Positions 3,149 through 49,340 of a stretch of 64,000 nucleotides of DNA are shown here, in pieces. Within the stretch, counting starts at the first letter, position 1. Each line of letters begins with the position of its first letter. Origin of the DNA: a virus (taxonomy: Duplodnaviria > Caudoviricetes); IMG/VR virus record IMGVR_UViG_2974791771_000001, positions 12,822-76,821 of that record; one strand, written 5' to 3'. The translations under genes were made by a program, and so were the position numbers. Under the pieces are notes generated by a model, which ran no database searches, had not been told where the DNA came from, and saw only the letters and a program-made list of their open reading frames with translations.

Positions 3149-6100
3149 ATGGCTGCTAACGCTCGGAAGGTTATTGGCGATGCGCTTCTGCGGATCTCCC
3201 CGTCCACCCTTCAGTTCAAGGAAAAAGCTGAAGCTGCGCTTGAGAAGATTCAGATCACGAAAGAGGTCACTCTTCTCGTTGATACGAAGGTTTTCAAGGC
3301 GCGTGTCAAAGAGGCTTTGCGTGAGGTCGATAAGGAACTCACGGTTGATCTGGGTGTGCGTACTTCTGCCGCGACTTCGCGGATCCGGGAGTGGCGTGAG
3401 CGCCAAGAGGCTGCTGACATCCAGATTGATGTCGACGCCGATACAGCTAAGGGTAAGGCTGAGATCACTCAGCTCCGCGAGTCTGAAGAGCACAACGACA
3501 TTGAGATTGGTGTCGATGCTGATACTCGCAAGGCCCGCAATGAGATCGATGATCTGAAGTACCAGTTCCGTGTCGTCCAGGGCTTCTCTGGCATGACGCT
3601 GTTCAATCTGGCGAATATCTCGATGGCCGCTACTGGCATCGCTGGCATCGTCGGGTTGTTGGGTGGCGTGGTTGCTGGTGCTGCTGCTGCCGCTACGGCT
3701 TTGGGCGCTATGGGTGGCGCTGTCGCTATCGGTAGCTCGGGCATCTTCAATGTGTTCTCTGAGTTGCAGGCCGATAAGAAGGCTGCGGCGACTCAGGATC
3801 CGTCGAAGGATGCGAAGAAGGTCACGGATGCCCTTCGTGAGCAGCGTGAGGCGTATCAGCGTGTTGCTGATGCTCAGCAGAATTTGCGGAACGCGTCTGA
3901 GGATTTGGCGTCCGATCAGGACAGGTTGCGTGAGGCGACTCGGGATGCGACTCGTGAGATTCGCGATCAGCGTTTGGAGTTGGAAGAGACGGGCCAGTCT
4001 CAGGAGCGTGCGGCGATCTCGGTTGCTCGTGCTCGTGAGCGCCTGTCTCAGGTCCGTTACGACTATTCGGTGGGCAAGGCGTCCCGGCTGGATGTGCAGG
4101 ATGCTGCTCTATCGGTTCGGGAGTCGGAGACTCGGCTCGCGGCGGCGCAGAATCGTAACGATGATGTGCGCGAGCAGGCCAATCAGGTTTATGCGAATGG
4201 CGTGCAGAAGAACCCGCGTGTGGTTGAGGCTCGCCGGGATGTGCAGCGTAGTCGGCAGAATGTGGGGCGTGCTCAGCGTGAGTTGAGTGACGCGAACACT
4301 GATGCGAAGGCTGTGCAGGCGAATGCTGGTGCGGCGGCGGATAAGACTTCTCGTTTCGATGAGGCGATGAAGAAGCTTTCCCCGAATGCTCAGCAGTTTG
4401 TGCGGGATGTGCGGTCGCTGGGTGGTGCGTGGCGTGAGCTTCGCATGTCGGTGCAGGACACGTTGTTTGATGGCTTGGGGTCGAGCGTTAAGACGTTGGC
4501 CGACAATCAGTTGCCTGGCCTTCGGGCCGGAATGCTGTTGACGGCGGGTGTCGCTAACAATCAGCTCAAGAAGTCGATGGATGTTCTGGATTCGACTTTC
4601 AGCGAGTTCCAGGCTGATGGTACGGCGGGACGTTTCTGGTCTTCGATCGAGTCTCAGTTCCGCAACTTCGCGCCTGCGGTTGATGGTGTTACTCGGGCTC
4701 TGACGACTTTGAGCATCGAGTCCGGCGAGGGCGTTGGTACGTTCTTCGGCGATCTGGGTGTGTTCCTGCGTGATGGTGCGCAGATGTGGGGCGAGTTCGG
4801 CGGCCAGGCGATGGAGTCGCTTGGCAATCTGCTGCACCTGTTCAATCGTTTCTCTGAGACGATGATGCCTACGTTCCAGGCTGCGTTGCCTGCTATCGAG
4901 CAGGTTTTCGGTGCCCTGAACAAGGTGTTGGGCGATAACTCGGGCCGTCTGGCTGAGTTCATGTCGTCTATCGGTAATGCGCTGTCGCAGCTCATCATTG
5001 CTGCCGCGCCGCTGATCGTGATGATTGTCGAGCCGTTGACGATGATCCTGAATGGGATCGCAGGTCTGCCGACTCCGCTTGTCGCTGTGGGTATTGCGAC
5101 TCTACTAATCACTCGCTCACTGTTGCAGGTTGTGATCGGTTTCGGCAACCTGATCGGACGCGTTGTGGCTGCCGGTCAGAGCTTCCGTAACTTGCAGACT
5201 GCGAGTCAGCGTTTCAGTCAGGGTATGCGCAATGACGTGACCCGTGCTGGTGATGGCGCGAACACTGCGATGTTCAAGTTCGGTCGGCAGTACCAGCGGA
5301 TTATGACTGGGGTCCAGGAGACTTCGGTTCGTTCGTGGGGCGCTTTCCAGCGCCACGCCCAGAACGCAGCTTTGGGGGCATCCAGGGCGGTCGGTAACGT
5401 CCGAACTGGTGTTGCTCAGCTCATCACTACGACTGATCGTGCTACGCAGGCTCAGACGCGTTTGGGCCGCGCTATGGAGGCTGCGGGACGTATGTCTCCG
5501 TGGGCTCGCATTCTGTCGATCCTGACGGTTATCGCGACGATCGCTGGCACTGTCATGATGCTGTTCGGAATGGGTGATGCTTCGGCTCAGTCCATGACGG
5601 GCACCACGACTGATGGTGTGGAGCAGATGTCTTCGGGCATCGGCAGTGCGACCGACAAAATGATGATCTTCATGTCAGTGGTCACGCTGCTGCCGATGTT
5701 GATGATGAGTGCTACGACTCGGGCTGCGATGGCTACGGCTGCCACGAACTTGTGGGCTGCGTCGGGTCGCGCTTTGGCTGCGTCGATGGCGTTCCTGGGG
5801 GCCTTGCCTGGCCGGATTGTTGCTGCGACTGTGGCGATGAAGGGTGCTGCTGCTGCGTCGAGGGCGTGGGCTGTTGTCCAGGCTGCGCTCAATGTTGTGA
5901 TGTCGATGAACCCAATCGGGTTGGTGGTCATCGCGATTGCCGCTTTGGTGGCCGGCGTCATCTGGGCGTGGAACAAGTTTGAGGGCTTCCGCAATGCGGT
6001 GAAGTTCTTGTGGGAACTGTTCCTGGATACGAATCCTATTGCGCTGCTGGTCAAGGGCATCAAGTGGGTGGTCGAGAACTTCGACAAGCTGCTCGGTGTG

Positions 6101-9100
6101 TTCTCGGGGCTCGGCAAAGCCTGGGACAAGGTGTGGGGCTGGATCAAAAAGGGCGCAGAGAACATGGGTTCTCTGTTCAAGCGTATCGCTGAGGGCATCT
6201 CAAAGGCGTTCTCGGGCATCGCGAATGTACTGAAGACTCCGATCCACCTGGTCGGCAAGCTGCTGTCCGCGATGGGCAATCTGAAGATTCTGGGCAAGAA
6301 CTTGCCTGGGTCTGATGGGTTGCGTTCTGTTGGTGACCGCCTTCAGAAGTTGCGTGTCGGTGGTGAGGTTCCTGCGGGTGTTGACGCTCAGGGCTGGTTG
6401 TTTGGTCCGGGTGGCTCTCGCGAGGATCAGGTGTTGGGTATCGACCCGGCTACGGGCCGTCCTACTGCGTTCGTGTCGCCGGAAGAGTTTGTGGTCAATG
6501 CTCATTCGGCTGCGAAGTATGCGCCGTTGGTGGAGGCTATCAACCGGGATGATCCGCGTTTGTCGGCGTTGGCTCGGCTGGATACTGGTGGCCGTCCTGA
6601 CGGTAAGGCTATGTCGCGCGACCAGTTCGATACGGCTTGGCACAACTACTTTGGTCGTTACGCGAACATCTCGCGCGAGGATGCCGCAACCGGGCTGAAC
6701 AAAGAAGAGTTGAGGCCGCTAGCTCCGAGTGAGATCGCGGTGTCCGGTAACGAGGGTTACGTTCGTGAGAACTACCTGGGCAACAATCCGGACATCAACC
6801 GGCTGTACCGCACTGGGCAGATGCCGCCTTCGTTCGCTGAGCGTGATCACACGTTGGCGTGGAAGGATTATCTGTCTCGTGTTGCGCCGCGTGATCTGCG
6901 TCCGCATGACCGGCGCGTGTATGACGGCGGCTACGCCCCGTACACCGATGAGCAGCGTGACGCCTGGTTCAACAAGTATCCGGGCATCAAGGGGATGCGT
7001 GACCGTGGGCAGATGCCTCCGAGTCCCGCTGATGTTGCTCGGCAGGTTGGCCGCGAGGACAAGTTCAATCAGGAGTGGGATCGGTACCTGAATACTCGGA
7101 TGCTGAATGGCGGCGAGCAGCGTAACCGTGACGTGTTCTGGGCGAACAACCCTGAGTTGTTGAAGCGGTACAAGTCTGGTGGTTTGCCTCCGGATCGCGA
7201 TCAGGACTGGCGTCTTGATCCGACATGGAAGCCTCCTGCTGAAGAGGGCGGCGAAATCAACCTCGACACGTCGGGTGGCGATTTCGAGATGCCTGAGAGC
7301 GGTAGCCCAAGTGGTGGCGGCGATTTCAGTGGCGGCAACTACGGCGGCTCTGGTGAGTGGAACCTGAACGATCCTGCGGGGTCGAATCCGGCGAACGAGA
7401 AGTCTGAGCTTCAGAAGGCTGCGGATGCGGCGGTTGCCGCCGGCCAGGCCAAGGGTATCGATGTTGCGGTTGCGATTTCGGACCCGAAGACTGGCGAGAG
7501 CTACACGGTCAATGCTGAGAAGTCGATGCCTTCAGCGTCGGAGATCAAGCTGGCTGTGGCGTTGGCTGCGGCGAAGAAGGTTGATGCCGGTGAGCTGAGT
7601 ATGGATGAGGTTCGGGGTGACCTGAATCCGATGATCTCCAACTCGGACAACGAGGCCACGAACCGTCTGATCGACAAGGTTGGCGGTGTCGAAGCGGTGA
7701 ATGCCGCGATGGCGGAGATGGGTGTTTCGTCTTCGGATGTTCGACTCGGGCGCAAGCTTGGGGTTGAGGTCGCGGGCGAGGATCCGAACCGGATGACGGT
7801 CACGGGCGCTAACGCGTTGCTGGGCATCATCTATCAGTCCGCTAATGGCTCGGGCAAGGTGTCGCAGAAGTCGGCGAAGTCGATCGTGGATGCGATGCGG
7901 GCTCAGACGGTTGACACCAAGTTTGGTGCGGTGTTGCCGAACGATCAGATCGCGCATAAGACGGGTGAGCTTGGCGGCTCGTCGCACGATATGGGTTACA
8001 TCTTCGATGGCGATAAGTGGCTGGCTGTCAGCATCATGACGAACAAGTCTGGTGCGTCTAGCCAGGCTGACAACAATGCGATCATTCAGCAGTTCGCGAA
8101 GGACGTGTACAACAACCGTCAGGGCCAGATTGGGCAGCCTCAGGGCCAGCCGTCGGGCATGGGTGGTTCTGGCTCGGACCTGAACATTGCTGGCGCTACC
8201 GAGTTCGCTCGGTCGATGGATGGCGTGCCGTATCAGATGGGTGGGTTCTCTCGGGATTCCATCGACTGCTCGGGCATGGTGTCTGCGGTTGTCAACGTCG
8301 CGAAGAACCTTGATCCGTTCGATTCTCGGATGAGCACGGTCACTGAGGGTGACTGGTTGAAGCAGAAGGGTGCGCTGGAAGGTCAGGGCTCGTCGGGCGA
8401 TCTTCGGATCGGCTGGTGGGACCAGGGCGGTGGGGCTAATGGTCACACTGCGGGCACTTTCCCGGATGGCACGAACTTCGAATCGACTGGTCCGAAGGTG
8501 CGTATTGGTGGGCCTGTCGGCTACAACGACAAGCAGTTCACCGATCACATGTACTTCCCTGGTGGCGGCGCTACGGGCTTGAACACGACTGGCACTCCTG
8601 GTGCTACTCCGGACGGCAATTACAACGCTCCGGGTGGTGGTGAGGATCCGTGGAATACGGGCGGTCCTGATGATTCGGAAACCTACACGCCGGAAGAGTG
8701 GGCGTTGGTTCCGTGGCAGGACAAGTTGTTCCCGAAGACGGGCCAGAAGAAGGCTCCGGATGGCGAGAGCGACAAGCTGTCCATTCCGGGCTATGCGGGT
8801 CGTGCTGGTGAGATTCTGGCGCAGGGTGCGTTGGACTTCTTTGGTTTGGGAAGCTCGGTTCTGTCTGACGACAACGAGTGGAATCGTGCGTTCAATGACA
8901 CCTACGAGTGGTGGGGCGATCAGGAACGTAAGAAGAATCTGAAGAAGAACAAGAAGGATGCGCCTCCTGCGGGCACTGGGGCTCGGAATGATCCGACGAC
9001 TCAGCAGTTGCTTCCGGGTTCGAATCCGGGCACTACGCCTCCGGGTCAGCAGACTCCTGCTCCCGCGCCGGCCGATCCGTCTAAGACGGGTACGGCTAAG

Positions 9101-42740: not shown

Positions 42741-43570
42741 ACACAACCAGACAGATCGCATACGACAACCTGATGATGCTCGGCGTAGCCGGATCGCAGC
42801 TCTACGGCACCAACCTGGACAACGGCGACAACGACCAGATGGGCGTCTGCCTAGAGCCACCCGCCTACGTGACCGGCCTGTTCACCTTCGAGCAGTACCA
42901 GTACCATTCCGCCGGCAAGGATACTCGTTCCGGCGCAGACGATCTCGACCTCACTATCTACAGTCTGCGCAAGTGGGCGCGACTCGCAGCAGCAGGCAAT
43001 CCCACGGTACTCCTGCTGGGTTTCACGCCGAAGCGACTCCTGCTGCACGACAGCGTGGATGGCCGAATCCTTCGAAACCACATGGACAAGTTCATGTCCC
43101 GCCAAGCCGCAGGCAAGTTCTATGGCTACCTGGAATCGCAGCGCAAACAGATGCTCGGTCTCACCGGACGCAAGCACAGCAATCGTCCAGAACTCATCGA
43201 GCAGTACGGCTTCGACACCAAGTTCGCCTACCACGCAGTGCGACTCGGAATGCAAGGCGTCGAGTATCTGACCACCGGGCACATGACGCTGCCGATGCGC
43301 GACGAGGAACGCAACTACCTCATCGACATCCGGCAAGGCCGCGAGTCCTTCGAAGATGTGGTGACCGTCATCAACCTGTACCAAGGGTTGCTGCTCAAAC
43401 TGATGCGCTCCACTGATCTGCCGCCGCGTGCGGACTACGACTGGATCAACTCGTGGCTCACCGACACCTACATTACTCACTGGGAACGCGAGGGGGTGGG
43501 TACTGACCTCTTGGCTAGACGAAGCTTCGGCAAGTCGATTCATAGGGCGTCACATCCGAACCCTGCGTAG
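42725..43570 (+). CDS. DNA-polymerase-beta superfamily nucleotidyltransferase (RlaP-like)
   Basis: GSQLYGT...GDNDQMG, GNPT.L, DTKFAYHAVRL. Confidence 0.82.
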   Translation: MGRNLNTTRQIAYDNLMMLGVAGSQLYGTNLDNGDNDQMGVCLEPPAYVTGLFTFEQYQYHSAGKDTRSGADDLDLTIYSLRKWARLAAAGNPTVLLLGFTPKRLLLHDSVDGRILRNHMDKFMSRQAAGKFYGYLESQRKQMLGLTGRKHSNRPELIEQYGFDTKFAYHAVRLGMQGVEYLTTGHMTLPMRDEERNYLIDIRQGRESFEDVVTVINLYQGLLLKLMRSTDLPPRADYDWINSWLTDTYITHWEREGVGTDLLARRSFGKSIHRASHPNPA

Positions 43571-43751
43571 ATGGCGGCAAGCACGGATCGTCGTGGCCCG
43601 CCACACCAAGTACGGCTACGAGTACGACAAGCAATCACTCCGTGCGGCGAAACTCCGCATGGCTCAACGCCGACTGATCGAGAAGGAAAACAACGGTGGA
43701 CGACCATTCAAGTACGCCCCCAAGCCCGGAGACATGGATCCCCTCTTCTGA
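43428..43751 (+). CDS. HTH DNA-binding protein (start uncertain, about 43500)
   Basis: LDEASASRFIGRHIRTLRRWRQ. Confidence 0.6.
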   Translation: MRTTTGSTRGSPTPTLLTGNARGWVLTSWLDEASASRFIGRHIRTLRRWRQARIVVARHTKYGYEYDKQSLRAAKLRMAQRRLIEKENNGGRPFKYAPKPGDMDPLF

Positions 43752-43959
43752 CTACGACCGTGCAGTGCACATTGTGGCCGAATCGGTCGCGGGTCGAGAG
43801 CCCACGGCCGACGATCTGAACCGGGCTGAGAAGCTGATCGCAGTGTTCTACAGTCTGGTGGAATCGCGGCTAATACCGTGTCCCCCCGGGGAGTAATGTT
43901 GTAAGTGAATCGGGGTTGAGAGAGCGCCCAAGACATTGAACGGCGTTCTTCACCCTGGA

Positions 43960-44026
43960 CTGATCGTCAGATGGGACATCTGCAGAGGTTTTGTAGGGTG
44001 CGCGGGTTCGAGTCCCGCCGATCAGA
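43960..44026 (+). ncRNA. Aberrant tRNA-like RNA
   Basis: Acceptor CTGATCG/CGATCAG and T-arm GCGGG-TTCGAGT-CCCGC; no canonical D or anticodon loop. Confidence 0.55.
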
Positions 44027-44028
44027 CG

Positions 44029-44145
44029 GGCGCAGATGCGTAGATTGTGGTTACTTCACTAATTGGATATGCAGGTTCAAGTCCTGCCGTCGGGGTGTAA
44101 AGTTACCCGACGTTTGTTCCACGATCGACCAAGTTCACTCGCGCC
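44029..44145 (+). ncRNA. Y-RNA-like unit 1 (carries a T-arm)
   Basis: GATGCGTA..GTTACTTC at 5', AAGTTC at 3', nested stems, GCAGG-TTCAAGT-CCTGC. Confidence 0.7.
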
Positions 44146-44153
44146 AACAACCA

Positions 44154-44226
44154 CCCCAGATGCGAAGGCTGCACAGTTACTTCAATTGGATGAAACGCAC
44201 ACTGTGTGCCATCCAGTTCCCTGGGG
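44154..44226 (+). ncRNA. Y-RNA-like unit 2 (minimal)
   Basis: CCCCAG/CTGGGG outer stem, GATGCGAA, GCACAG/CTGTGT inner stem, TTACTTC, CAGTTCC. Confidence 0.65.
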
Positions 44227-44237
44227 TTACATCTTCA

Positions 44238-44432
44238 CGTTCAGATGCGTAGAGACGTTGGTTACTTCCATTTTAAGGACGAGGTTGCGGGTTCGAATCC
44301 CGCCTGCGCTATGTTTACCCGAAGGTAGGGCCTGGCATAAAGGCCAGTGGTGGGGTTCGAATCCCCGGCTGTGACGGTAGCTCAATTGGCAGAGCGCGTA
44401 AAAACACCAACACTCGGCAAGTTCCCTGAACG
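44238..44432 (+). ncRNA. Y-RNA-like unit 3 (YrlA-type permuted tRNA domain with two T-arms)
   Basis: CGTTCAG/CTGAACG outer stem; T-arms precede the D-arm AGCTCAATTGGCAGAGC. Confidence 0.75.
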
Positions 44433-44444
44433 ATCAAACATTCC

Positions 44445-44523
44445 GCCGTGATGCGAAGCAAGAACGTTACTTCAACTGCTGATAGATGAAACCCACACGT
44501 TCATGCGCCACAGTTCACACGGC
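44445..44523 (+). ncRNA. Y-RNA-like unit 4 (minimal)
   Basis: GCCGTG/CACGGC outer stem, GATGCGAA, GAACG/CGTTC inner stem, TTACTTC, CAGTTCA. Confidence 0.65.
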
Positions 44524-44550
44524 ACAATTCAACACACAGGAGCAGAAGGA

Positions 44551-46149
44551 ATGTCGCGCTACAACACCGCCACCAAGGCCCGACCCGCACAAAAGTCGAG
44601 CGCCATCAAGGCAGGTACGAAGCCCAAAACCAACCCACAGGGTGGAACCGGATTCAAGCGCGGCGACGCCAAGTCCGAACTGTTCCTTTCCGCTGCAACC
44701 TCATTCATGCAGCCCAAATTCTACGAAACCGAGAACGATCTCCGCACGCGACAGCGCAAGCTCATCGCCAAGGTGGCCGTCTCCGACCCGGAGTGGACCT
44801 TCGAGTTCCTGACATGGCTCCGCACCGAAGGCAACCTGCGCACCGGGTCGCTCACCCTGGCCGCTGACGCCGTTTATGAGCGCCTGAAGGCGGGTAGGTA
44901 CGAGCACGGCTGGAACCGTGCGATCATCTCCACGGTCCTGCGCCGGCCGGACGAGCCTGGCGAAATGCTTGCCTACTGGACCAGCAACTACGGTCGCAAC
45001 GTGCCGATCTCGGTCAAGCGTGGCATCGCGGATGTCATCGAGGGACAGTACAACGAGCGCAACTTTCTGAAGTACGACAGTGCCTCTCGCGCCTTCCGGT
45101 TCGGTGATGTGATCGAGCTGACCCATCCGAAGATGACGGGCAGCCGGGGTGATCTCGCCTCGTATGCGATCACTGTGGGTAAGGGCCGTGACGCCGAGAT
45201 TCCTGATTCTCTGCCGATGATTCGAGAGAATCGCTCACTCCGCGCCACGGGCCTGAGCCCGAAGGTTCGCAAGTTGATCGCGGATCGAGGTGGCGACCTC
45301 TCCCAGGTTCTTGCTGCTGCTGGTATGACGTGGGAAGACATCCCCTCACTCGTCAACGGCCCCTGGACCCCCGAACTGTGGGAAGCCGCCATCCCCAACA
45401 TGGGAGTCATGGCGCTCATGCGCAACCTCCGCAACTTCGACCAGGTCGGCATCTCCAAGCAAGCCGCAAAGATGGTCCGAGACAAACTGTCCGACCGTGA
45501 AGCCGTCCTCAAGTCCCGCATCCTTCCCCTCCGCGCACTCAGCGCCTACAAGGCCGTCAGCAACTCCCGCTGGCACGGCGCACTCGAAGACGCGGTGGAC
45601 ATCACCCTGGACAACGTTCCCGCCCTGAAGGGCCGCACGCTGATCCTCGTGGACTGCTCGGGATCGATGTTCTTCAGCAACGGCACCGACCTGAGCTACG
45701 CGGAGTCGGCAGCCGTGTTCGGCACCGCGCTCGCCGCCAAGGCTGACAATGCGACTCTCGTGCACTACGGGTCGAACTCGCGTGAGGTCAAGGTGCCTCG
45801 TGGAGCTTCGGTGTTGGAGATGGCCCGCTCGGTGCACAGCATGGGTGGTACGGCCACCGCAGAGGCGATCCAGGCCCACTACAACGGCCACGATCGAGTG
45901 ATCCTGCTGACCGACGAGCAGCACAATGGTGGAGGCTACGGATGGGGCTCACGCTACGTGTCGGCGAGCCCTGGCGACTATGTGCCCAAGCACATCCCGC
46001 TCATCACCTTCAACCTCGCCGGATACAAACTCGGCGGCGTCAAAGACGAACCCAACCGGCTCACCTTCTCGTCCCTCTCGGACAGTGCATGGAAGCTGGT
46101 CGACATGTTCGGCAACGGCGCAACCGGATGGCCCTGGGAGGCTAAGTGA
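44551..46149 (+). CDS. Ro60/TROVE-domain RNA-binding protein with C-terminal vWA domain
   Basis: SELF, W.RTEGNLR, RPDEPGE.LAYW, MALMRNLRNF, vWA MIDAS DCSGSM, TDEQ. Confidence 0.93.
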   Translation: MSRYNTATKARPAQKSSAIKAGTKPKTNPQGGTGFKRGDAKSELFLSAATSFMQPKFYETENDLRTRQRKLIAKVAVSDPEWTFEFLTWLRTEGNLRTGSLTLAADAVYERLKAGRYEHGWNRAIISTVLRRPDEPGEMLAYWTSNYGRNVPISVKRGIADVIEGQYNERNFLKYDSASRAFRFGDVIELTHPKMTGSRGDLASYAITVGKGRDAEIPDSLPMIRENRSLRATGLSPKVRKLIADRGGDLSQVLAAAGMTWEDIPSLVNGPWTPELWEAAIPNMGVMALMRNLRNFDQVGISKQAAKMVRDKLSDREAVLKSRILPLRALSAYKAVSNSRWHGALEDAVDITLDNVPALKGRTLILVDCSGSMFFSNGTDLSYAESAAVFGTALAAKADNATLVHYGSNSREVKVPRGASVLEMARSVHSMGGTATAEAIQAHYNGHDRVILLTDEQHNGGGYGWGSRYVSASPGDYVPKHIPLITFNLAGYKLGGVKDEPNRLTFSSLSDSAWKLVDMFGNGATGWPWEAK

Positions 46150-47160: not shown

Positions 47161-47296
47161 CGGCTGATAGTCCAATGGAGCGGTCCTCACATATCGAACT
47201 AGCGGGCGTGCACGCCGACGGCTAGCGAATTTCTGTGAAGGGTCCAGGACGCCCCAAATGGTGGAGGAAATGCGGGTTCGAATCCCGCGAGGCCGA
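47161..47296 (+). ncRNA. tRNA-like RNA with about 75 nt inserted at the anticodon position
   Basis: T-arm GCGGG-TTCGAAT-CCCGC; TCCTC/GAGGA stem enclosing extra hairpins. Confidence 0.5.
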
Positions 47297-47375
47297 CCGT
47301 GCCCGACTGTGCACGTAAACAGTCCGCAGACGACAATCGGCAGGAACACTGCGGTATCAAAAGTTCCCACCCCAT

Positions 47376-47445
47376 GTAGCGTTGGTGTAGAGAGCACACT
47401 GGTGTGCAAAGCCAGAGGCGTGGGTGCAATTCCTGCACGTGTACT
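47376..47445 (+). tRNA. Degenerate tRNA-Cys(GCA)
   Basis: CTGGT-GTGCAAA-GCCAG anticodon arm; atypical T-loop (TGCAAT) and imperfect acceptor stem. Confidence 0.5.
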
Positions 47446-49257: not shown

Positions 49258-49340
49258 CTGGGTGCCGCCTACCCTGGTTTGGCAGCGGCCTGTAAAGCCG
49301 TCGCGGAAACGCATTGGGAGTTCAAATCTCTCCACCCAGA
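49258..49340 (+). tRNA. tRNA-Tyr(GTA)
   Basis: Cloverleaf with variable arm; GCGGC-CTGTAAA-GCCGT. Confidence 0.88.

Follow-up and report, generated by a model that had tools for sequence, protein, structure and literature searches.

A YrlA-type Y RNA unit with a second T-arm upstream of a phage Ro60 ortholog

Positions 44238–44432 of the window, a stretch of 64,000 nt that forms part of a 76,821-bp IMG/VR virus record, carry a unit in which two consensus T-arms precede the D-arm. The evidence described below supports the conclusion that this unit, the third among four in an array (unit 3), encodes a YrlA-type Y RNA. In the reading that we prefer, at a probability of roughly 0.6, the RNA keeps the ancestral elbow of T-arm 1 and the D-arm, and its acceptor-like stem-loop (AS) has been replaced by a locally folding insert with an extra T-loop hairpin. 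The permuted order of T before D is already known from published YrlA; the new part is the doubled T-arm.

An earlier note on this DNA had described T-arm 1, two short hairpins, T-arm 2, and a D-arm in that order, and each of these elements was located at the positions listed in Table 1. In the DNA form, the D-arm reads GCTC-AATTGGCA-GAGC (44380–44395), preceded by TA at 44378–44379. The 13-mer GGGTTCGAATCCC occurs three times in the window and was absent from 100 shuffles. The note had also held that there is no anticodon loop. This is not quite right, because two hairpins are able to present anticodon-size 7-nt loops, TCC-ATTTTAA-GGA (44267–44279) and GGCCT-GGCATAA-AGGCC (44329–44345); for the latter, hairpin 2, RNAfold chooses the CUGGC-AUAAAG-GCCAG register.

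Table 1. Features of unit 3 and the adjacent Ro gene (positions are those of the window)
Feature	Position	Strand	Remarks
Outer stem, 5' strand CGUUCA	44238–44243	+	Pairs with 44427–44432 (TGAACG); in MFE; bounds the unit
5' Y-RNA motif GAUGCGUAG	44244–44252	+	Resembles the published GNCGAAN0-1G Ro-contact motif, no exact match
Inner stem, 5' strand GUUGGU, then conserved UUACUUC	44257–44268	+	GUUGGU pairs with ACCAAC 44406–44411
V hairpin UCC-AUUUUAA-GGA	44267–44279	+	7-nt loop; MFE; V-arm equivalent in alignment A3
T-arm 1 GCGGG UUCGAAU CCCGC	44287–44303	+	Same in Trax and Neville; U44286 at the nucleotide-48 position
AS-replacing segment, 74 nt	44304–44377	+	Rfam alignment (68-nt insertion); 26 nt in Trax/Neville
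Hairpin 1 / D'-like arm	44316–44330	+	Registers UACC-CGAA-GGUA (44316–44327) or CCC-GAAGGUA-GGG (44318–44330, loop keeps GGUA)
Hairpin 2	44329–44347	+	Registers GGCCU-GGCAUAA-AGGCC (5 bp, 7-nt loop) or CUGGC-AUAAAG-GCCAG (5 bp, 6-nt loop)
T-arm 2 UGGGG UUCGAAU CCCCG	44351–44367	+	G44350 at the nucleotide-48 position; absent in Trax and Neville
U8-A9, then D-arm GCUC AAUUGGCA GAGC	44378–44395	+	A14, A15, G18, G19, A21
3' strands	44406–44432	+	ACCAAC inner stem; AAGUUCCC motif 44419–44426; UGAACG outer stem
Ro60/Rsr ortholog (TROVE + vWA)	44551–46149	+	Pfam TROVE 59.9 bits; presumed protein partner

Published YrlA RNAs run from the T-arm through the AS to the D-arm, with the Ro-binding stem at the anticodon position (PMC4201824; bioRxiv 10.1101/312249). 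A crystal structure of the tRNA-like domain of S. Typhimurium YrlA is available (bioRxiv 10.1101/312249), and the sizes of AS, AC, and VL vary among YrlA RNAs while the elbow is conserved (10.1101/312249). The V, T, AS, and D layout of unit 3 fitted this design. The proposal of the earlier note that the unit is a YrlA-type permuted tRNA mimic was supported by the alignment to Rfam RF02553 (YrlA), by the canonical ortholog in phage Trax, and by the TROVE gene 119 nt downstream. RF02553 aligned with 44263–44426 over its full length (31.5 bits, E = 1.2e-4, in a permissive local search of 1.1 kb), and the alignment placed a 68-nt insertion exactly at the AS. At the Rfam gathering thresholds, no family was reached at unit 3 (31.5 bits for YrlA against a cut-off of 69 bits). 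The Trax ortholog scored 44.1 bits and the loci of phages VanLee, GiJojo, BRock, and Frankenweenie scored 30–47 bits, so that this cut-off excludes all five related phage loci scanned. Neither ARAGORN nor the Rfam tRNA model (RF00005) found a tRNA within 44238–44432. The insert follows tRNA numbering from U8 to position 65, and an RF00005 cloverleaf, with its paired acceptor stem and a 7-nt anticodon loop carrying U33, was considered and rejected; the flanks of the insert are unpaired, a paired acceptor stem is absent, and the loop is GGCAUAA.

We aligned 65 non-redundant T-to-D units that neighbour Ro genes (alignment A3); their sources were phages, viral contigs, and a single Tsukamurella genome. 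RNAalifold recovered the T-arm, a flush 6-bp AS, and the D-arm from this alignment, and these elements are backed by many compensatory pairs (9 of the 15 pairs show compensatory changes). The D-stem GCUC/GAGC is invariant in all 65 units, and UACUUC is near-invariant across them. In unit 3, T-arm 1 (44287–44303), with a T-loop of the UUCRANY type, precedes the D-arm (44380–44395), with G18G19 in its loop, and the UA linker (U44378, A44379) falls in a near-invariant column of A3. The AS helix has six covarying pairs in the family but only three in unit 3 (CUG 44304–44306/CGG 44375–44377), which lead into the branched 68-nt insert, so a single closed AS between T and D is absent. A covariance model built from the 65-unit alignment (R1) matched unit 3 and unit 1 (T-arm and AS, without a D-arm) in the window; the only other comparable matches were tRNA junctions.

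Like the RF02553 members, unit 3 lies beside Ro60/Rsr on the same strand, and the two share the succession of 5' stem, V, T-arm, AS, U8-A9, D-arm, and 3' stem, the T-loop and D-loop consensus, the Levitt-type A15–U48 pair, and a Ro-binding stem that replaces the anticodon arm. Unit 3 differs from them in its 74-nt AS, which has three closing pairs and holds two hairpins and a second consensus T-arm (the AS is usually 14–26 nt among 86 Ro-linked units), in its 5' motif, GCGUAG instead of CGAA, and in its score under the Rfam cut-off. The 5' motif, GAUGCGUAG in unit 3 and GAUGCGAAG in units 2 and 4, is akin but not identical to GNCGAAN0-1G, the published Ro-contact motif (PMC4201824). Related 5' forms, G[GA]UGCG[ACU]AG, were found at other Ro loci. 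The YrlA/YrlB RNAs of M. smegmatis share with unit 3 the actinobacterial lineage and a UUAC(C)ACUUC 5' element; as in this array, several Y RNAs lie upstream of rsr, there derived from one precursor.

Unit 3 belongs to a Gordonia phage whose closest relatives, Trax and Neville (Nevillevirus, Deeyouvirinae), share 81% nucleotide identity with it over 43800–44560. The open reading frame of the TROVE/vWA protein starts at 44551 on the same strand as unit 3, well within the distance of about 4 kb from a Ro60/TROVE gene that is used as a proximity criterion for YrlA. Between its product and the "Ro-like RNA binding protein" of Trax, the identity is 90.5%; the VWA_2 match of the product, at 23.4 bits (E = 9.3e-5), is under the Pfam cut-off of 27 bits. 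An RlaP-family nucleotidyltransferase gene and a Nampt-like gene lie upstream, and a primase-polymerase gene and a tRNA cluster lie downstream. A Logan contig from a public run (76,851 bp, depth 365, probably from the source sample) showed no difference over 43900–44600, indicating that the duplicated T-arm is not merely an error of the deposited assembly. Among public runs, sequence of this stretch was recovered only as that DNA contig and as small pieces from a soil run; no RNA run was listed for it. Scanning 43500–44700 yielded no promoter-like site, and the three terminator-like sites found there, against about one in shuffles, were not convincing.

The 600 bases 5' of the Ro gene contain a tRNA-like minihelix (43960–44026) followed by four Y-RNA-like units, all co-oriented with the Ro60 gene. 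Each of the four units has GATGCG(T/A)AG at its start, TTACTTC inside, and an AGTTC(A/C)C-type 3' strand at its end. T-arms are present in units 1 and 3, and units 2 and 4 are plain hairpins. Comparable arrays were found in phage VanLee and in many uncultured relatives. The minihelix combines a T-arm with a 7-bp acceptor-type stem, CTGATCG/CGATCAG; the counterpart in Trax, CTGACTG/CAGTCAG, differs from it by compensatory changes, and the interior (43962–44001) is unrelated to Trax in sequence and length. In the records of the two relatives, the array is annotated as three small hypothetical proteins (Trax genes 91–93, L001 2678–3088; Neville genes 88–90, L002). Elsewhere, tRNAs are annotated just upstream of Ro genes: tRNA-Arg(tct) at 1204–1275 of L012, tRNA-Arg(cct) at 1269–1343 of L013, and a 91-nt tRNA-Pro(tgg) at 1245–1335 of L015. 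They overlap with the TTACTTC motif, V hairpin, and T-arm of Y-RNA units and look like false tRNA calls.

The Trax and Neville ortholog of unit 3, at the orthologous position in a four-unit array, has a single T-arm and, instead of the long insert, a 26-nt AS that forms an irregular hairpin with a GCAA loop. The near-identical flanks run up to ...CCCGCC and from GGTAGCTCAAT... onward. The Ro-side scaffold, V hairpin, T-arm 1, U8-A9 linker, and D-arm of unit 3 are orthologous to those of the canonical single-T-arm YrlA of these two phages. The identity of the scaffold to Trax was 97% over 44002–44091, 97% over 44106–44303, 93% over 44377–44479, and 95% over 44495–44560. These values exceed the nucleotide-level identities of the Ro and RlaP coding sequences (87.5% and 84.8%, respectively), which argues for purifying selection on the RNA. 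Four apical segments (43962–44001, 44092–44105, 44304–44376, and 44480–44494) are wholly replaced compared to Trax and Neville and differ in length, with indels of 10–48 nt relative to Trax. A soil-metagenome contig (run X2, record 2) shares 45 nt with 44260–44304, covering the V hairpin and T-arm 1, and continues with a different short AS and then TAGCTCAACG, giving a third AS variant on the scaffold. Judging from this outright replacement on a conserved scaffold and from the third variant, the AS behaves like a module that can be exchanged, or is quickly replaced, within a scaffold under strong constraint.

Searches for the origin of the insert returned no donor. When 44300–44390 was compared by BLAST with the genome of the phage itself and with 50,697 phage records, only T-arm cores and a tRNA-like 5' end matched, and a pattern with the exact flanks of the insert had no matches in IMG/VR. 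Apart from Trax (90%), scans with the Ro protein over IMG/VR, metagenomes, and GTDB genomes found no relative with more than 53% identity. A recent internal duplication was rejected as the source, because the V-like hairpin, T-arm, and D-like hairpin of the insert are too unlike their neighbours.

The earlier note had called the extra T-arm unusual, and the survey agrees. Among 86 T-to-D units in 69 Ro-linked loci, a second T-arm within the unit was found in the window only (0 of the other 85); in four other Ro-linked cases, two T-arms also lie no more than 140 nt apart, but there an upstream tRNA or a distinct unit accounts for them. The double-T YrlA is a singleton in the data reached. A degenerate T-T-D pattern gave one match in 401 Actinomycetes genomes, located within a 17-tRNA array and not in a Y RNA. 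In IMG/VR, the pattern occurred in more than 120 places, in which the arms came either from two tRNAs and a T-arm-bearing spacer between them or from a tRNA with a YrlA-like module behind it. The dimeric tRNAs and minihelices of phage arrays share the T...T...D order with unit 3, but their arms come from separate tRNAs or spacers, whereas all arms of unit 3 lie inside one stem-enclosed Y RNA.

Three contigs of viral or proviral origin each carry a compact tandem RNA, T-AS-D-(17 nt)-T-AS-D, whose arms are canonical and which has a terminator-like hairpin: L142 (7312–7440), L140 (645–771, minus strand), and L155 (1733–1834). R1 gave two adjacent matches in L142 and one in L140, and the tandem order in both was read from the sequence. 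These RNAs resemble unit 3 in having two T-arms and two D-type arms in a short unit, with 17–20 nt from the first D to the second T. They differ from it in that both D-arms and both AS hairpins are canonical and that a TROVE gene and an enclosing Y-RNA stem of the window's type are absent; a search for TROVE in five viral records with YrlA-like or tandem modules, including L142 and L140/L155, found none. Doubled permuted modules thus exist elsewhere, though not in the form of unit 3.

The Levitt pair joins position 15 of the D-loop to the base 5' of the T-stem, and 78 of 85 comparison units have G-C or A-U there. A15 in the D-arm of unit 3 fits the base that precedes T-arm 1 (U44286, U48) but does not fit the G48 that precedes T-arm 2. 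By this rule, T-arm 1 is therefore still the matched partner of a D-type loop, and T-arm 2 is unmatched to either D-type loop. In a nested fold, T-arm 1, the three flush AS pairs, U8-A9, and the D-arm would keep the YrlA core. The insert, in tRNA numbering, would consist of UU at 8–9, a D-like hairpin (4 bp, CGAA loop), G26, another hairpin (5 bp, 7-nt loop GGCAUAA), a 5-nt variable region, and T-arm 2, that is, an acceptor-less tRNA core inside the AS. A tandem double head, V1-T1-AS1-D' followed by hairpin 2-T2-AS2-D with two elbows on one Ro-binding stem, would instead pair T-arm 1 with a degenerate D' (CCC-GAAGGUA-GGG) and T-arm 2 with the canonical D-arm. R1 does split unit 3 into two adjacent matches, 44253–44346 (43.7 bits) and 44351–44407 (30.1 bits), the first of which aligns UA-CCC-GAAGGUA-GGG to U8-A9 and the D-arm. 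Each T-arm is then followed by 10–12 nt, UA, and a hairpin with GG-N-A in its loop, and the RNAs of L142 and L140/L155 are true examples of such an order. We nevertheless consider a double head of this kind unlikely, because the D' stem has just 3 bp and lacks the GCUC/GAGC stem found in 65 of 65 units, neither AS1 nor AS2 yields a hairpin, and the pairing of T-arm 2 with the D-arm gives G48–A15. In addition, V2, T2, and D' differ too much from V1, T1, and D to have arisen by a recent duplication, while the flanks are near-identical to Trax. A further alternative, also unlikely in our estimate, arises from the palindromic UUCGAA, owing to which the sequences of T-arms 1 and 2 can form a 16-bp helix. 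Pairing of the two T-arms would then give a helix some 21 bp long, with two small hairpins as its cap, and the tRNA-like head would be abolished or would toggle between two states. The ViennaRNA MFE of −75.4 kcal/mol, compared to −59.4 kcal/mol for the best fold that keeps T-arm 1, T-arm 2, the D-arm, and the AS pairs, favours this duplex, and in the ensemble its probability is about 1.0 and that of either T hairpin is 0. Prefix folding keeps the hairpin of T-arm 1 up to 44350 and loses it once T-arm 2 is transcribed; the barrier between the folds was estimated with findpath at about 12.7 kcal/mol. Two control tRNA pairs from the same window kept their T hairpins or formed no T:T duplex, and the predicted duplex is therefore no trivial artefact. 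However, nearest-neighbour models take no account of tertiary contacts between T-loop and D-loop, of Mg2+ and modifications, or of proteins on the RNA. Moreover, T-arm 2 has T-arm polarity and is not the reverse complement of T-arm 1, and the duplex requires a register shifted by 1 nt with three G-U pairs. This polarity and the shifted G-U register suggest that T-arm 2 looks like a T-arm by descent, and not like a strand selected for pairing with T-arm 1. The proposal of the earlier note that the extra T-arm may form a second elbow or a bivalent decoy for elbow-binding enzymes gained no support here, and the predicted duplex is a serious thermodynamic rival to it; the A15 of the only D-arm with a full consensus fits T-arm 1.

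If RNase P, RNase Z, or a different enzyme cut the RNA in the AS region, the insert or the two halves would act separately. There is some precedent, since the YrlA of M. smegmatis is an RNase P substrate and is CCA-tailed (PMC4201824); in addition, the array is headed by the minihelix with its 7-bp acceptor and T-arm, a typical processing signal, and the RlaP nucleotidyltransferase is encoded upstream. We give such processing little probability, because the published RNase P case needed a 7-bp stem, the 7-bp AS of the cleaved and CCA-tailed M. smegmatis YrlA. No 7-bp acceptor-like helix is found on either T-arm of unit 3, where three pairs follow T-arm 1 and none is flush with T-arm 2. It is scarcely credible that there is no RNA feature at all and that the region is an assembly artefact or a set of small protein-coding genes. 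The hypothetical proteins annotated over the array in Trax and Neville would agree with the latter, but RNA covariance models match the region, the scaffold is more conserved than the neighbouring coding sequences with the indels confined to the apical modules, and the independent Logan assembly, although likely from the same sample, has the same sequence.

By homology, the RNA should be bound by the phage Ro60, with its tRNA-like head open to a partner that binds tRNA. In bacteria, Y RNAs act as tethers between Ro60 and PNPase, and YrlA is modified by TruB and DusA; the Ro60 of a Thermus phage binds two phage Y-like RNAs and the host PNPase (PMC12135203). In the mechanism that we propose, the phage Ro60 would bind the RNA through the stem and the 5' motif, and the tRNA-like head would be presented to a tRNA- or elbow-binding host partner. 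The ancestral T1/D elbow would be retained, as suggested by the match of A15 with U48 of T-arm 1 and by the three remaining flush AS pairs. The insert would fold locally as an expansion of the hypervariable AS and display the extra T-loop hairpin. Our best guess is that this hairpin is a tolerated, possibly partner-modulating, lineage-specific expansion. Isolated T stem-loops suffice as TruB substrates, and a folded T-arm 2 would thus be a second recognition site. A bolder and quite doubtful extension is that unit 3 is a double-headed Y RNA, in which one Ro60-binding stem carries two tRNA-like modules (either two elbows, or one elbow and a tRNA core that has no acceptor and whose loops resemble anticodon loops). 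In that case, the whole array would hold exchangeable apical cassettes, which would redirect the phage Ro60 to different host tRNA-binding enzymes or act as decoys for tRNA-directed defence nucleases.

Y RNAs are thought to be modular tethers, in which a conserved stem holds Ro60 and a variable head picks the partner. Between the related phages compared here, the stems are conserved beyond the neighbouring genes and the heads of all four units have been exchanged; one head has gained a further T-arm, in the proportions of a tRNA core. Should this arm fold and be recognised, unit 3 would be the first Y RNA to offer two tRNA-like surfaces for recognition, and the window phage and Trax would be a natural pair for testing the role of the head. 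If it does not fold in this way, it shows how well the acceptor-like loop of YrlA tolerates insertion. On the practical side, related phage records at present label such arrays as small proteins or as false tRNAs.

Some further elements were noted in the window. At 47271–47368, between the primase-polymerase gene and the first tRNA, a T-arm the same as T-arm 1 (GCGGGTTCGAATCCCGC) is followed after about 75 nt by AAGTTCCC, which the Y units carry as their 3' motif. A fifth Y-like element may lie here. The Rfam tRNA model matched 49258–49340 (39.4 bits) and 47380–47439 (31.7 bits), neither of which is called by ARAGORN. T-arm-like 17-mers at about 9013 and 21781 lie within a 2228-aa open reading frame and under a 145-aa minus-strand open reading frame, respectively. 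In other viral records, L132 has seven YrlA-model matches in series (4701–8890), and a Ro-like gene lies downstream of them at about 9470. The highest-scoring match, 67 bits at 6188–6290, shares the flank ...UAAGGACGAGGUCGCGGG... with the window. A YrlA-like T-AS-D module lies directly 3' of a tRNA in L115, L124, L162, and L108, which are phage records without a Ro gene, and the records of L115 and L124 are rated complete. Among the IMG/VR loci L105–L184, many phage tRNA arrays have T-arm-bearing spacers between the tRNAs that ARAGORN does not call. The T-to-T spacing there falls into two classes, about 36–46 nt (minihelix size) and about 60–66 nt; the distance between T-arms 1 and 2 in the window is 64 nt.
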